64,000 bases of DNA from Candidatus Latescibacterota bacterium (GTDB lineage Bacteria; Latescibacterota; UBA2968; GCA-2709665): the NCBI GenBank assembly GCA_965116875.1, contig OZ220733.1, forward strand, positions 2,912,001-2,976,000, read 5' to 3'. The position numbers and the translations under genes are program-made. Under the pieces are notes generated by a model that did no database searches, had not been told where the DNA came from, and saw only the letters and a list, made by a program, of their open reading frames with translations. Numbering within the stretch: the first letter of the stretch is position 1; each line of letters begins with the position of its first letter. Below are positions 17,725 to 24,481 of this stretch, in pieces.

Positions 17725-17865
17725 ATGGTGTTGTCTTTCCCCTTTATTTCCCCACAGTTAAGTTCGTTTTCAGCTCCTTGACCCCACGTTGGGTGCGTCT
17801 TCCTCCCCTGATTGTACGGTCTTCAAGCGGGGTTGCGTTTTCCTGCGATCCCGAGAAGGTATGTT

Positions 17866-19767
17866 ATGCCTGAAACAAAATCGACACTGCGCGGTTCGGG
17901 TCAGCTTTCGCTTTCCATAAACGGGAAGCCCGCGCCTGCCCGTCGATCCTCCGCCAGGAAGAACAACGGCGAATCCCCCGAACACGGGTACGACGAGTCC
18001 AAGGTCAAAACACTCAGTTCGCTGGAACACATTCGCCTGCGCACCGGCATGTACATCGGCCGGCTTGGCGACGGTTCCAATCCGGACGATGGGATCTACG
18101 TCCTGCTGAAGGAAGTCATCGACAATGCCGTAGACGAATTCATCATGGGCTACGGAAAAAAGATCGACGTCAGTATCGAGGACAACCGGGTCCGGGTCCG
18201 TGACTACGGCCGCGGCATTCCGCTGGGCAAGGTCATCGACTGCGTTTCCATCATCAATACCGGCGCGAAATACAACGACGACGTCTTCCAGTTCAGCGTG
18301 GGCCTCAACGGCGTGGGCACCAAGGCCGTCAACGCCCTCTCTTCCGACTTCAGGGCAGTCGCGTACCGGGAAGGAGAATACTTTGAAGCCCGCTTTGAAC
18401 GCGGCCGATTGAAGAAGAAGATGAAGGGCCTGAAGCCGGGCGAACCCGACGGGTCGTTTTTCGAGTTTCTGCCCGATGTTCAGATCTTCGGCGATGACTT
18501 CGCGTTCAACTTCGATTACGTCCGCCAGCGGCTGTGGAACTACGCCTGCCTGAACAGCGGACTTTCCCTCGTCTTCAACAGGGAACGATTCGTATCCAGG
18601 AACGGTTTGCTGGATTTCCTCACCCGCGAAGTCGGCGAGACGGCCCTCTATGAGCCCTTGTATCACAAGTCCCAATACCTCGAGTTCGCGTTCAGCCACA
18701 CGGCCAGCTTTGGGGAAACGCATTTCTCTTTCGTCAACGGCCAACACACCAGCGACGGCGGGGCCCACCAGAGCGCCTTTCGCGAGGGCATCCTCAAGGG
18801 CGTGAACGAATTCTACACGAAGAATTACAACGGCATCGACGTTCGGGAGAGCATCTCCGGCGCCGTCGCCGTCAAGCTCAAGGCGCCTGTATTCGAGTCG
18901 CAGACAAAGAACAAACTGGGGAATACGGATATTCGGGGGTGGATTGTCGCGGAGGTCAAGAGCGCCGTGGTCGACCTCCTGCACAAGAACCAGACCGCGG
19001 CCCAGAGGCTGTCCGATAAAATCGCCCAGAACGAAAAGTTGAGGAAGGAACTCAACGCCGTCAAGAAAGAGGCGAAGGAAGCCGCCCGGAAAATCGCAAT
19101 CAAGATTCCGCACTTCAAAGACTGCAAATTCCACCTGGGCCACAGGAAGCATGGCGACGACTCAACCATCTTCATCACCGAAGGTCCTTCGGCGGCGGGA
19201 TCCATGGTCTCCGCGCGCGACGTCCTCACCCAGGCGATCTTCGGCCTGAAGGGTGTTCCTCTGAACGTATTCGGCAAGAATAAGGCCGCCGTGTACAAGA
19301 ACGAGGAACTCTACAACCTCATGATGGCGCTCGGTATCGAAGACGGCATCGAAAACCTGCGGTTCAATAAAATCGTCATTGCCACCGACGCCGACCACGA
19401 CGGTTACCATATCCGGTACCTGCTCCTCACGTATTTCCTGAACTATTTCGAGGAACTGGTGCTGGCCGGCCATCTCCATATCCTGGAGACACCGCTCTTC
19501 CGCATCCGGAACAGCAAGGTCACGCGCTACTGCTACAACAACCGGGAGCGCGACAGCGCCCTGGAAGAGGTCAAAAACCCCGAGATTACACGGTTTAAGG
19601 GGCTCGGGGAAATCTCGCCGAAGGAATTCGGTCAGTTCATCGGCGACGATATGCGGCTGGTCAAAGTCAATATCCGTTCCATATCCGAAATCGCCAACAC
19701 GCTCAGCTTCTACATGGGCAAGAATACCCCCGAACGCAGGGACTACATCATCGAAAATCTGGTTTGA
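17866..19767 (+). CDS. parE: Type IIA topoisomerase B subunit (topoisomerase IV ParE-like)
   Basis: GHKL ATPase (EVIDNAVDE, DYGRGIP, GLNGVGTKAVNALS); TOPRIM ITEGPSA and ATDADHDG; RFKGLGE. Confidence 0.9.
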   Translation: MPETKSTLRGSGQLSLSINGKPAPARRSSARKNNGESPEHGYDESKVKTLSSLEHIRLRTGMYIGRLGDGSNPDDGIYVLLKEVIDNAVDEFIMGYGKKIDVSIEDNRVRVRDYGRGIPLGKVIDCVSIINTGAKYNDDVFQFSVGLNGVGTKAVNALSSDFRAVAYREGEYFEARFERGRLKKKMKGLKPGEPDGSFFEFLPDVQIFGDDFAFNFDYVRQRLWNYACLNSGLSLVFNRERFVSRNGLLDFLTREVGETALYEPLYHKSQYLEFAFSHTASFGETHFSFVNGQHTSDGGAHQSAFREGILKGVNEFYTKNYNGIDVRESISGAVAVKLKAPVFESQTKNKLGNTDIRGWIVAEVKSAVVDLLHKNQTAAQRLSDKIAQNEKLRKELNAVKKEAKEAARKIAIKIPHFKDCKFHLGHRKHGDDSTIFITEGPSAAGSMVSARDVLTQAIFGLKGVPLNVFGKNKAAVYKNEELYNLMMALGIEDGIENLRFNKIVIATDADHDGYHIRYLLLTYFLNYFEELVLAGHLHILETPLFRIRNSKVTRYCYNNRERDSALEEVKNPEITRFKGLGEISPKEFGQFIGDDMRLVKVNIRSISEIANTLSFYMGKNTPERRDYIIENLV

Positions 19768-19947
19768 ATACAGGGTCGAATTAACGTCCCCTAAAGTTGA
19801 CGAACCGAGGTTAACCAGGATTCGTAATTCTCCGTGCACGTTAATTCAAATATGTGCTTGTAAATAAAGGCGATTAGACGGCGAATTATCAGGATACACC
19901 AGGTCACTGGAAGCGAACAGGAACTTTCTTCCGGGCCCCTCAGAAAC

Positions 19948-20085
19948 GGGTAGACGGGAGACGGTAGAGGGGAGAGATTTCCTGCCTAGTGGAGTTTCTT
20001 CTCCTGCCGGAGGCAAGAAGGAATAGAGTAGCGGGCAAGGGCTTCTTCTCCCGTCTTCCCTCTACACTCTACCCGCATTCAGGCT
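19948..20085 (-). repeat. Family H repeat, copy B
   Basis: TGCCGGAGGCA at 20005-20015; GAGACGG/CCGTCT heptad flanks; AGCCTGAATGCGGG end on the minus strand. Confidence 0.75.
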
Positions 20086-20178
20086 TTTTCGAACCAAGGT
20101 TAATGCAGGGGTCAGGAGAAAACCGAGGTCCCATCTTTCCCTGACCCCTGAGTTCTTACGCGGTAAAGAGGAGAAGCC

Positions 20179-22068
20179 GTGGCATACGTCGATACGCTTT
20201 ACGACAAATACTATCTGGAGTTTGCGTCCTATTCCATCAAGAACCGGGCGATCCCCAGCATAGACGACGGCTTCAAGCCGGTTCAGCGGCGCATTCTGCA
20301 CGCCCTCCACGAGATGGACGACGGCAAGTACCACAAGGTCGCCAACGTCGTGGGCCAGACGATGCGGTATCATCCCCACGGGGATCTCTCCATTTTCGGC
20401 GCCCTCGTCAACCTGGCCAACAAGGAGCTGTTCATCGACAGGCAGGGCAATTTCGGCAACATCTTCACGGGCGACGAGGCCTCCGCGGCGCGCTATATCG
20501 AGTGCCGGCTCACGCCTCTGGCCAGAGAGGTCCTGTTCAACCCGGAGACGACACAATTCGAGGATTCGTACGACGGCCGCAACCGTGAGCCGCTCGCCTT
20601 TCCCGCGAAGATCCCGGTCTTGCTGGCGATAGGCTCGGAGGGCATTGCGGCGGGAATGACCACCCGCATTCTCCCGCATAACCTGATTGAGCTGCTCGAG
20701 GCGCAGATCGCCTGCCTGCAGGACCGACCCTTCCGACTCAATCCCGACTTTCCCACGGGCGGGATGGTGGATGTCTCCGGATATGACGACGGAAACGGAA
20801 AGGTTCTCGTCCGGGCAAAGCTGGATACGAAAGACCCGAAGCGCATCATCGTGCGGGAACTGCCTTTTGGCACGTCAACCGAGACCCTCATCGCCTCCAT
20901 CGAAGACGCTTCCAAAAAAGGGAAGCTCAAAATCTCGGGTATCAGCGACTATACGACCGATCAGGTGGAAATCGAAATCCAGCTCGCGCGCGGCGTGCAC
21001 ACCAAAGATACCGTAGACGCACTCTATGCATTTACGGACTGCGAGACGTCAATTGCGGCGAATCTGCTGGTCATTCGCGAGAACCGCCCGCAGATCACAA
21101 CCGTGACCGACGTGATTCGATACAATACGGACCGCCTGGTCGAGCTGCTCAGGACCGAACTCAAGCTGGAAGAGCGCCGGTTGACCGTCCGGCATCACGC
21201 GAAAACGCTCGAACAGATCTTCATTGAAAACCGGATTTACAAGCACATCGAGGAGGAGACCACCTCCGAGGACGTCTACCGCGCGGTGTTCGACGGGTTC
21301 GAACACTTCAAGGAAAACATCAGGGCGGAAGTCTCGCGTGAGGACGTGGATAACCTGCTCAAGATCCCCATCAGGCGCATCTCGCTCTACGATATCAACA
21401 AGGCCCAGGAGGAAATGCAGGAAATCCGCAAGCGCCTCAGGGAGGTCCGCGCCAACCTTCGCGGCATCCAGGCCTACGCTATCGGGTTCGTCGAAGGGAT
21501 CATAGAGAAATACCGGGCAGATCACCCCCGGAAGACAGAGATCGCGAGCATCCAGAGAGTCGACGTCCGGGAGGCGGCTCAGCGAAATCTCAAGCTGCGC
21601 TACGACAGGAATACCGGTTACCTGGGCCACGAGGTCAACGGCGTCGCCCTTTTCGACGTGTCGCCTTACGACCGTGTTCTGGTCATTCGCAAGTCCGGAA
21701 CCTACTCCGTGGTGGACGTCCCCGAAAAGCTCTTCGTGGACAAAGGTATGCTCTTCTGCAATTTCATTGACGAAGACCGCGTCTACAATATCTTCTACAA
21801 AGAGAACAAGACCGGATATCTCTACATCAAACGGTGCAAAATCGACAAATTCATTCTGAACCGGGGATACGAACTGGCGCCGGAAGGCTGCCGCATCCTG
21901 AAACTCACCACCAACTCCAAACGTACGATCCAGGCCAAATTCAAGCCCAAACCGCGCGTGCGAATCACCGAAGAGGAATTCAACATCGGCGACTATCCCG
22001 TTCGCGGCAACAGGGCGAGGGGCATCCGCCTGGCCAACCGCGAAGTCAAGAGCGTGAAGTTCATCTGA
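20179..22068 (+). CDS. parC: Type IIA topoisomerase A subunit (ParC-like, short C-terminal domain)
   Basis: RAIPSIDDGFKPVQRRIL, YHPHGD, QGNFG, AARYIE (catalytic Tyr); no GyrA box seen. Confidence 0.9.
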   Translation: MAYVDTLYDKYYLEFASYSIKNRAIPSIDDGFKPVQRRILHALHEMDDGKYHKVANVVGQTMRYHPHGDLSIFGALVNLANKELFIDRQGNFGNIFTGDEASAARYIECRLTPLAREVLFNPETTQFEDSYDGRNREPLAFPAKIPVLLAIGSEGIAAGMTTRILPHNLIELLEAQIACLQDRPFRLNPDFPTGGMVDVSGYDDGNGKVLVRAKLDTKDPKRIIVRELPFGTSTETLIASIEDASKKGKLKISGISDYTTDQVEIEIQLARGVHTKDTVDALYAFTDCETSIAANLLVIRENRPQITTVTDVIRYNTDRLVELLRTELKLEERRLTVRHHAKTLEQIFIENRIYKHIEEETTSEDVYRAVFDGFEHFKENIRAEVSREDVDNLLKIPIRRISLYDINKAQEEMQEIRKRLREVRANLRGIQAYAIGFVEGIIEKYRADHPRKTEIASIQRVDVREAAQRNLKLRYDRNTGYLGHEVNGVALFDVSPYDRVLVIRKSGTYSVVDVPEKLFVDKGMLFCNFIDEDRVYNIFYKENKTGYLYIKRCKIDKFILNRGYELAPEGCRILKLTTNSKRTIQAKFKPKPRVRITEEEFNIGDYPVRGNRARGIRLANREVKSVKFI

Positions 22069-22911: not shown

Positions 22912-22957
22912 AAAAAACAGCTATCAGCGGTCAGCCGTCTGCAATCAGCGAAAGGCG

Positions 22958-23131
22958 GACCTCTCCCCCCGGCCCCCTCTCCTGAAGGAAAGGGGGAGAA
23001 AGGCTGGCGTCGCGTACCGGTGTTCTAAAACATTCTGATCGATGGGACAACTTTGTCACGGCACGACCGCAAACATCGAACCGTCACCATTTCCCCTTTC
23101 TTCAGAAAGGGGGCAAGGGGGTAGGTCTCGA
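22958..23131 (-). repeat. ~175-bp MITE/REP-like element, copy 2
   Basis: Reverse complement of 7984..8158 with scattered substitutions. Confidence 0.85.
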
Positions 23132-23157
23132 TAGGTGAGAAAGCAAAGGAGATCGAT

Positions 23158-24348
23158 ATGACAGCACGTTTAGATGAATGGAAACCTGGTCCCGAGACGA
23201 TTGAATCTCTGTCCTCGCTGATCCGGTCAAAACCCGAGGAAGTCCGGTGGACGGAAATCGGATGGGATACCGACCTCTGGGCGGCCCGCCGCCGCGCGGC
23301 CGCGGTGCGGAGACCGTTGTTCATCTGGGCGATGAACGGCAACCCGCTCGGCTGTGTCTGAAACAACGGCATCGCGGGCCGTGAGTCCGTTTTCTCCCAT
23401 CCCGACATTATCCGGATCCTCAACGAATCCTACGTTTCGGTTGCGGACAACTGCAGCTATACCCAGACGCAGAAGGACGCCAAGGGCGAGTTCTTCCGCC
23501 TCGTGGCCGAACAGGGCCATTATGGTGGAGTCACCGAACCCACGGCCACCCGGCAGGGCCTGTACGCGTGCACGTCCGACGGCGAGTTGCTGGGGTCCAT
23601 CAACACGCGGGACGCCGCCCCGCTTCTGGAAGTGCTCGAGCAGAGCCTGGAAAGGTGGCGGAAACGCCCGGATGGCGGCGATTCGCCCGACATTTCCGAA
23701 ACCTATCCCGTCGATCCCAGGCTCGGATGGTCCTATCCGGAAAACGGCCTTGTGCTGAGAGTCACGGTTCGCGACCTTCCGCGGAACTCCGGCGACGTCG
23801 ACCCCCGGCACAACATCGACTTCGCGTGGTTTACCCGGGAGGAGACCCGGTCTCTCGCGCCCGGGAATGTCGTGCCCGGCCAGACCTGGCGCGCGCCGGA
23901 TTTCTTTACCAGACGTCTCGCCCTGCGCCACTTCATCGACACGGCACGCGGTCAATCGCCTGGATGGAAGGAAGAAAATCTGAAGGACGCGGAGATCCGC
24001 CTGACCGTCGAATCCGTCGAAACCGACTGCGTCCGGCTTCGCATGGAAGGACGCATCCACCTGGTGGGGGAACCCAGTTTCGAATCCAATCCCCACAGCG
24101 GCCTGACGGTTGACAAGCCGCGGGGTCTCGATTTGACCCTATATGGGCGCCTCGCGTACGATCCCCTGCGGCGGAGCTTTAATGCCTTCGATGCCGTTGC
24201 GACGGGCGACCGATGGGGCTGCACTACCTACAACGTTCGCTTCGACGACCCCGGCCCCGCGCCCATCGGTTTCGCCTTCGAACTCGCGTCGGACAATCCC
24301 ATCGAACGCACCCCTCCCGCATCCATCAGGCAAAATTACTTCGATTGA
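23158..24348 (+). CDS. Probable selenoprotein (396 aa; Sec at TGA 23359-23361; thioredoxin-like, SELENON-like core)
   Basis: ORFs 23158..23361 and 23503..24348 are in the same frame and the gap between them is open: ...FIWAMNGNPLGCV[TGA]NNGIAGRESVFSHPDIIRILNESYVSV...; AAGGAG RBS before 23158, none evident before 23503. Confidence 0.75.
23362..23395 (+). promoter_or_regulatory. Candidate bacterial SECIS hairpin
   Basis: Starts 12 nt after the UGA: GCGGGC-CGTGA-GTCCGT, 6-bp stem with G-containing apical loop. Confidence 0.55.
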
Positions 24349-24413
24349 CATTGCCATTGGGATGCTTCAGAAATATCGGATTGATGCAGCAGCCATTATC
24401 GCATACAAACGCG

Positions 24414-24446
24414 AAAAGCGCCCCGGTGAAGAGCCGAGGCGCTTTT
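24414..24446 (+). terminator. Intrinsic terminator-like hairpin downstream of the putative selenoprotein
   Basis: AAAAGCGCCCCGG-TGAAGAG-CCGAGGCGCTTTT. Confidence 0.6.
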
Positions 24447-24481
24447 GGTGTCAATTATACATGCCGCACATACGCCCAAAC

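Follow-up and report, generated by a model that had tools for sequence, protein, structure and literature searches.

A predicted family of C-x-U selenoproteins with a thioredoxin-like and a beta-rich domain in Latescibacterota and other bacterial phyla

The window analyzed here, a stretch of 64,000 nucleotides from a Candidatus Latescibacterota bacterium (assembly GCA_965116875.1, contig OZ220733.1, positions 2,912,001 to 2,976,000 of the forward strand), contains two open reading frames (ORFs) that share one frame and are separated by an in-frame TGA. The first encodes 67 amino acids (23158-23361) and the second 281 (GTG 23503 to TGA 24346-48). Between them lie 47 open codons (23362-23502), and the TGA at 23359-23361 is the sole in-frame break. 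Neither frameshifts nor further stops were found in the joined frame 23158-24348. An earlier interpretation made without database searches (the sequence-only reading) had taken the two ORFs as a hidden selenoprotein gene, and the anatomy that it described was recovered in full. The joined product has 396 residues (...WAMNGNPLG-C66-V-U68-NNGIAGRES...), with Cys66 placed two residues ahead of the UGA-encoded residue 68. A ribosome-binding site (RBS), AAGGAG, precedes ATG 23158, and none precedes GTG 23503; a terminator-like hairpin follows the second ORF. Across the UGA, the read-through product reads ...PLGCV-U-NNGIAGRESVFSHPDIIRILNESYVSV, with the motif G-C66-V-U68-N-N-G. As argued below, the TGA almost certainly encodes selenocysteine (Sec). 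The features of the locus are collected in the table.

Table. Positions, within the window, of the predicted selenoprotein gene and its associated features
Feature	Position	Strand	Remarks
Whole selenoprotein gene (predicted)	23158..24348	+	396 codons including one Sec codon, plus terminal TGA stop
RBS AAGGAG	23146..23151	+	6 nt 5' of ATG 23158
Cys66 codon TGT	23353..23355	+	partner of Sec in the C-x-U motif
In-frame TGA, almost certainly Sec codon U68	23359..23361	+	column conservation, identical second-run contig
Hairpin of the bacterial selenocysteine insertion sequence (bSECIS) type	23374..23390	+	5' arm 23374-79, apical loop CGUGA 23380-84, 3' arm 23385-90
N-terminal thioredoxin-fold domain (predicted), residues ~28-172	23239..23673	+	AlphaFold + Foldseek
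C-terminal beta-rich domain (predicted), residues 176-396	23683..24345	+	AlphaFold; no recognised relative
Terminator-like hairpin with U run	24409..24451	+	61 nt 3' of stop codon; folding versus shuffles

GGAG-type sites precede starts that lie 67-72 codons upstream of the TGA at 19 complete homologous loci. The hairpin after the second ORF has a folding energy of -28.1 kcal/mol (z = -5.5, with 0/200 shuffles as good). A simple terminator scan did not pick it up; judged by eye, its outermost stem encloses more than the 8-nt loop limit of that scan. Rfam gave no match in the window at gathering thresholds.

The in-frame TGA is conserved in related genomes. The gene was found in 31 of 41 such genomes, and all 34 site-spanning matches (41-89% identity) contain exactly one in-frame TGA. 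In these matches homology starts at residue 1-19 and ends at 388-396, across the TGA; a 35th match, a 54-residue end fragment, lies outside the site-spanning count. A phylum sample of 151 genomes gave a match in 40, with one TGA in 41/41 site-spanning matches, and four more rows were partial and stopped short of the TGA site. The sequence-only reading had proposed to look for homologs with TGA or Cys at this position and for conservation on both sides. Both were seen: homologs have TGA and some more distant ones Cys (see below), and homology flanks the TGA in all 34 and all 41 spanning matches.

Not only the presence but also the position of the TGA is constant. It occupies the identical column, C-[V/T]-TGA-N-N-G, in 20/20 fetched loci. 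One genome per species was then scanned with two patterns, one anchored on the motif but permitting Cys or Trp codons, the other site-independent. Among the resulting 64 loci, 63 show C-[V/T]-TGA-N-N-G with the Cys kept, the exception (L071) being outside the motif pattern used, and Cys or Trp codons at the Sec column, which the motif-anchored pattern permitted, were found in none. By record titles, the 64 loci belong to Latescibacterota, Gemmatimonadota, Poribacteria, Chloroflexota, Pirellulaceae/Planctomycetaceae (Planctomycetota) and Akkermansiaceae. The counts overlap, in that several of the 64 loci coincide with places in the search of the 41 relatives. The Cys66 column is invariant in the two alignments designated A4 and A6.

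The letters at the site were recovered in a second public sequencing run (X2), of which a contig covers 23296-23524 with zero letter differences. Another run (X3) contains a relative that is 90-99% alike, and its contigs leave the TGA site uncovered. Small shares were also seen in runs labelled as sponge, coral reef and marine metagenome, which is no evidence of habitat, and no RNA run was among those listed as carrying the sequence.

Paralogs of the gene occur within single genomes. Two or three, each with its own TGA, are present in the related genomes G017 (three places) and G029 (C1:3301759-3321133). L096/L102 and L101/L105 are also paralog pairs, and some paralogs lie within ~20 kb of each other. 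One subfamily of ~422 aa has an insertion after a QG(H/R)(Y/F) motif and extra Cys residues. At a Chloroflexota locus (L103:1639-1953), similarity is lost ~38 codons after the TGA; the copy may be decaying, or a frameshift or a mistake in the assembly may be responsible.

A covarying hairpin lies directly downstream of the TGA, exactly where the sequence-only reading had drawn it: it starts 12 nt after the UGA and consists of GCGGGC, the loop CGTGA and GTCCGT. For comparison, a 72-nt segment surrounding the TGA was taken from each of the loci L024 and L044-L107, which gave 61 distinct sequences. After 18 near-duplicates had been excluded by eye (L046, L048, L049, L052, L067, L068, L076, L077, L082, L088, L091, L092, L093, L096, L099, L100, L101, L105), 43 sequences were aligned. 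The RNAalifold consensus of these is precisely the same hairpin. Paired cells amount to 96.9% versus 82.5% in shuffles (0/500 shuffles as high), changes on both sides are found in 6/6 pairs (33 cells), and the covariation score is 0.58 versus 0.285. When the 3' arm was slid by 1-3 columns as a control, pairing was 29-51%. The TGA and the hairpin are thus beyond chance, because they are conserved and covarying across dozens of homologous loci.

The hairpin also has the dimensions of a bSECIS element. The criteria given in a 2026 review (PMC13188914) are an apical loop of 3-9 nt, an upper stem of 4-16 bp, a G in the first two loop positions, a UGA-to-loop distance of 16-37 nt and a minimum free energy of at most -7.5 kcal/mol. 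The window hairpin lies within all of these bounds: its 5-nt loop (CGUGA) has G-U at positions 2-3 and lies 18 nt from the UGA, its stem comprises 6 bp and its energy is -7.6 kcal/mol. Of the 43 homologous hairpins, 31 reach -7.5 kcal/mol.

The genome is equipped for Sec insertion. It consists of one 5.45-Mb contig, and selA, selB, selC and selD, whose presence the sequence-only reading had named as a test, all score above curated cut-offs. The tRNA-Sec gene (selC) scores 73.4 bits and is read by ARAGORN as SeC with anticodon TCA; selB and selA match with 373 and 549 bits, respectively. The selD match (366 bits, C1:1070717-1071640, locus L020) has one in-frame TGA, and selenophosphate synthetase is probably itself a selenoprotein in this genome. 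Among the relatives, selA was found in 39/41, and the two genomes without it are 80% and 91% complete. The genetic code is not reassigned, since TGA ends both the selenoprotein gene and the SDR gene upstream of it. The tRNA-Sec, selB and selA genes adjoin as one minus-strand cluster at C1:184347-187783 (L001, L009, L014).

Gene callers split the gene in public databases, as had been expected from the sequence. In 136 of the best 150 HMMER hits, the match starts at residue 72 or later, and a start just after U68 is the signature of truncated gene calls. An exhaustive HMMER search against clusters at 50% identity gave 1615 clusters at E <= 0.001, 676 at E <= 1e-10 and 164 at E <= 1e-30. In a database of 90% clusters, 114/117 hits cover <= 82% of the query, and all named ones are called "hypothetical protein". 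Among the public records examined, those of the Sec form are truncated hypothetical proteins without the active site. Two full-length database proteins, P0048 and P0067, carry W at the Sec position. The former is 83% identical to locus L078, whose codon is TGA, and for this reason its W is most likely the product of a gene call with code 4.

The residues on the two sides of the TGA are predicted to build one domain. AlphaFold2, run with an 89-row alignment, gave a confident model of the whole protein (mean predicted local distance difference test, pLDDT, 93.2; predicted template modeling score, pTM, 0.91; model m8d8bf6bb6fdc). In this model, the N-terminal domain comprises strands 54-59, 93-98, 134-138 and 144-148 and helices 71-79, 82-91, 108-117 and 153-168. 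The core follows the order beta-alpha-beta-alpha-beta-beta-alpha, and the loop leading into helix 1 carries the redox motif. The order of strand, redox motif and helix that had been read from the sequence is therefore present in the model (strand 54-59, C66-V-U68 in a loop, helix 71-79). The predicted thioredoxin fold straddles the TGA, with strand 54-59 before and helix 71-79 after it.

For the whole model, Foldseek found no match in the PDB at E <= 0.001. It is the N-terminal domain that accounts for the best matches, namely 7tkv_A (Thioredox_DsbH; probability 1.00, E 6e-3, 148 columns, root-mean-square deviation 4.2) followed by 3ph9_A (AGR3; probability 0.99, TM 0.65 on the target). Residues ~28-172 are predicted to form a thioredoxin fold of the Thioredoxin_7/DsbH-like type. 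Searches by sequence gave little. The window protein had 0 hits at E <= 1 in Pfam and NCBIfam (PF13899 and PF03190 included), and a scan of 89 family members returned one weak hit to Thioredoxin_7 PF13899 (E 0.03) and one to NF041383 (E 0.0068). In the PDB, neither the protein nor the N-terminal profile had a meaningful match by sequence, the two hits (E 0.37 and 1.4) being chance.

The C-terminal domain is beta-rich and without a known relative, as had been supposed, on the basis of AlphaFold and of the PDB, Pfam and NCBIfam searches. Modeled alone, it reached pLDDT 95.1 and pTM 0.90, and Foldseek gave 0 matches to the PDB at E <= 0.001 (best probability 0.33, TM <= 0.36).

The 396-residue product of the window gene appears to be cytoplasmic. 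It has no signal peptide, its N-terminus is not hydrophobic, and the frame is closed by a stop 12 codons ahead of the ATG, too near for a signal peptide to fit in. A signal-peptide-like N-terminus was found in 12/56 loci (by crude hydropathy, from the first in-frame start), which by record title come from Poribacteria, Planctomycetota, Akkermansiaceae and one unnamed bacterium. Such an N-terminus is absent from the loci of Latescibacterota, Gemmatimonadota and Chloroflexota, the window gene among them.

The two-domain architecture is not confined to proteins with an in-frame TGA. Among 15 full-length non-TGA homologs (28-37% identity), the motif is C-x-C in 2, x-x-C in 3, C-x-x in 6 and without Cys in 4. 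Cys thus stands at the Sec column in 5/15, twice as C-x-C. Because the motif Cys is lost in some members, the scaffold is not always redox-active. It is in the C-terminal domain that the superfamily as a whole has its most conserved columns (W224, G298, R205, N219, D221, R253, H258, D261). In several non-Sec homologs the two-domain module is part of a larger protein: it is fused C-terminally to Ser/Thr kinases (P0147, P0149, P0150, P0172, one of them with Kelch repeats), forms the C-terminal part of a FecR protein (P0261), or stands ahead of a SecDF P1 head (P0234) or, N-terminally, of a PQQ propeller (P0135).

Several of these observations weigh against a redox selenoprotein of the thioredoxin fold. 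The 65-nt stretch of the window, taken alone, is no stabler than shuffles (z = 0.14), its minimum-energy single-sequence fold pairs bases otherwise than the conserved hairpin, and 12/43 homologous hairpins are weaker than -7.5 kcal/mol. Since the single-sequence fold is unexceptional, the support for the hairpin stems from comparison and not from energy. The hairpin also lies within conserved coding sequence, so that part of its conservation is protein-driven, and the compensatory changes on both arms alter amino acids as well (A/V/T with S/L/T). The thioredoxin assignment comes from a predicted model whose Foldseek E-values are weak (6e-3), and the neighboring genes, which vary from clade to clade, offer no clue to function. 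Residues A, S, G, N, R or D also occur at the Sec column in the wider superfamily, four members are entirely without Cys in the motif, and the Cys forms are only 28-37% identical, with no close Cys twin among the homologs found. The lack of special stability in the single-sequence fold, together with public gene calls that show exactly the two-part split, would also suit a locus with two products, a 67-aa peptide ending at UGA 23359 and a second protein starting, for example, at GTG 23503. We consider this very improbable, because that GTG has no RBS before it, the 47 inter-ORF codons are conserved as protein in all homologs, stop-free full-length homologs span both parts, and the predicted thioredoxin fold draws on residues from both sides of the TGA. 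While a lone in-frame stop in one sequence is compatible with a pseudogene, a nonsense mutation or a sequencing error, the same TGA is present in every site-spanning homolog examined, the second-run contig is identical across the site and the joined frame has no frameshifts or other stops, which makes the chance of any such defect negligible. The W in P0048 and P0067 might indicate that UGA is read as Trp, Gly or Cys, by an altered code or by general read-through. This has next to no probability either, given the TGA in the close relative of P0048, the use of TGA as terminator by the gene and its neighbor, the occurrence of exactly one internal TGA per homolog, and the presence of Sec machinery and a covarying SECIS. 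The pseudogene, two-gene and code-change readings were therefore rejected. Very likely, 23158-24348 is a single gene whose UGA is recoded to Sec via SelB and tRNA-Sec, directed by the SECIS hairpin 12 nt downstream, and we infer that selenium is inserted at UGA 23359-61 itself.

What such a selenoprotein would do can be proposed by analogy. Sec68 would be the attacking or exchanging redox center. Together with Cys66 it would alternate between the selenol/thiol state and a selenenylsulfide, as other thioredoxin-fold selenoproteins of the CxxU and CxU types do, and the conserved polar surface of the C-terminal domain would hold the substrate. We give this combination of a Sec68/Cys66 selenenylsulfide cycle with C-terminal substrate binding about an even chance. 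The main alternative is a genuine selenoprotein whose Cys66-x-Sec68, rather than catalyzing thiol-disulfide exchange, would serve to bind a metal or metalloid or to sense a ligand, the module then being primarily a binding or sensor unit. Such a role would go well with the fusion of two-domain homologs to Ser/Thr kinases, a FecR domain, a SecDF P1 head and a PQQ propeller, with the lack of a motif Cys in 4/15 full-length non-TGA homologs, and with the location of the most conserved residues of the superfamily in the C-terminal domain. However, the Sec-bearing clade keeps both Cys66 and Sec68 in 63/64 loci, the motif occupies the classic redox position of the thioredoxin fold in the predicted model, metal-handling genes were not found nearby in the neighborhoods examined, and Sec is used mostly in redox catalysis according to PMC13188914. 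Binding or sensing is therefore unlikely in our view, and a redox role of the family is what we infer.

The proteins constitute an uncatalogued, widespread family within a known kind, the bacterial thioredoxin-fold selenoproteins, in which the C-x-U spacing and the second domain are unusual. Table 1 of PMC13188914 gives model accessions for 119 prokaryotic selenoprotein families or subfamilies, among them the Trx7/PDZ domain protein NF041199, the thioredoxin-like selenoprotein Sec.1 (CxU) and DsbA-, DsbG- and TlpA-like proteins. None of the Pfam and NCBIfam models in that table matches the window protein, a few entries with cd or PTHR accessions only not having been searched as such. With the catalogued CxxU, UxxC and CxU thioredoxin-fold selenoproteins of bacteria, the protein shares a UGA-encoded Sec at the redox position, a split by gene callers and a bSECIS hairpin just downstream, within the coding sequence. 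It differs from them by an extra beta domain of 220 residues without a known relative.

Thioredox_DsbH/Thioredoxin_7 (7tkv, Brucella Bab1_2064) and AGR3 (3ph9) are the best matches of the N-terminal domain, but sequence identity is 12-14%, E-values range from 6e-3 to 8e-2, and there is no match by hidden Markov model. Motifs of the Thioredox_DsbH/Thioredoxin_7 and AGR3 type are CxxC or CxxS, whereas the motif here is C-x-U, and the partner domain is different. The C-x-U spacing in a thioredoxin-like fold is shared with the eukaryotic selenoprotein SELENOF (Sep15), but here the SECIS is bacterial-type, and two domains make up a far larger protein. The Pfam models searched, which include a Sep15/SelM family model, gave no match to the window protein at E <= 1.

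A resemblance to SELENON, which had been suggested from the sequence alone, may reflect only the general spacing pattern of Thioredoxin_7/DsbH-like domains. In both proteins the Sec lies in a thioredoxin-like region, and the spacing of conserved residues behind it appears similar. SELENON has an adjacent Cys-Sec (SCUG-type) motif, and its redox region is preceded by a transmembrane segment and an EF-hand. The window protein has the motif C-V-U-N, no EF-hand or other Pfam domain was found in it, its N-terminus is not hydrophobic, and the thioredoxin domain comes first and is followed by the new beta domain. PDB searches by sequence and by fold had no selenoprotein N among their hits. When residues 36-100 of a family member were used in a word-seeded search for SELENON, none of the 35 candidates reached E <= 10; this negative is a weak one, as the procedure needs shared exact 5-residue words and scored just 65 residues. 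It is conceivable, though in our estimate improbable, that the family is the prokaryotic counterpart of the SELENON redox core, that its new C-terminal fold binds the substrate, and that the same two-domain module, having lost its redox residues, was recruited by Ser/Thr kinases and FecR-type anti-sigma factors to serve as their extracytoplasmic sensor. If the relation to SELENON were true, the family would offer a tractable bacterial model for a human disease selenoprotein with still unclear chemistry.

In the literature, no paper on the family was found by a search that left supplementary tables, such as those of deep-Sep or metagenome selenoproteome papers, outside its range. The motif strings CVUNNG and GCVU likewise led to no paper, and CTUNNG was found once, in a journal contents page of 1825. 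By record titles the family is spread over at least six phylum-level groups. It would enlarge the selenoproteomes of Latescibacterota, Gemmatimonadota, Poribacteria, Chloroflexota and Planctomycetota, and its addition to catalogues and annotation models would correct truncated records. As its rare C-x-U motif is joined to a domain without any solved relative, and as it exists in forms with and without signal peptides, the family could reveal a redox reaction that is assigned to no enzyme yet.

Gene neighborhoods are not shared between clades. In the window, the neighbors are a gyrB/gyrA-like pair, SDR, Ldh_2, GFO_IDH_MocA and HpcH; in other clades, a DegT aminotransferase or His_Phos_1 is found instead, and clustering of flanking ORFs (1.5-kb flanks) revealed nothing common across clades. 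The gyrB/parE-like gene and the gyrA/parC-like gene, the latter short at 629 aa, lie directly upstream (17812-22065) and are followed by the SDR gene. The 245-nt intergenic region 5' of the selenoprotein gene contains two G/C-tract palindromes, at 22930-23000 and 23093-23112. The latter is a near-perfect 20-nt palindrome that is unique in the window; it may terminate the SDR transcript or represent a small repeat element.

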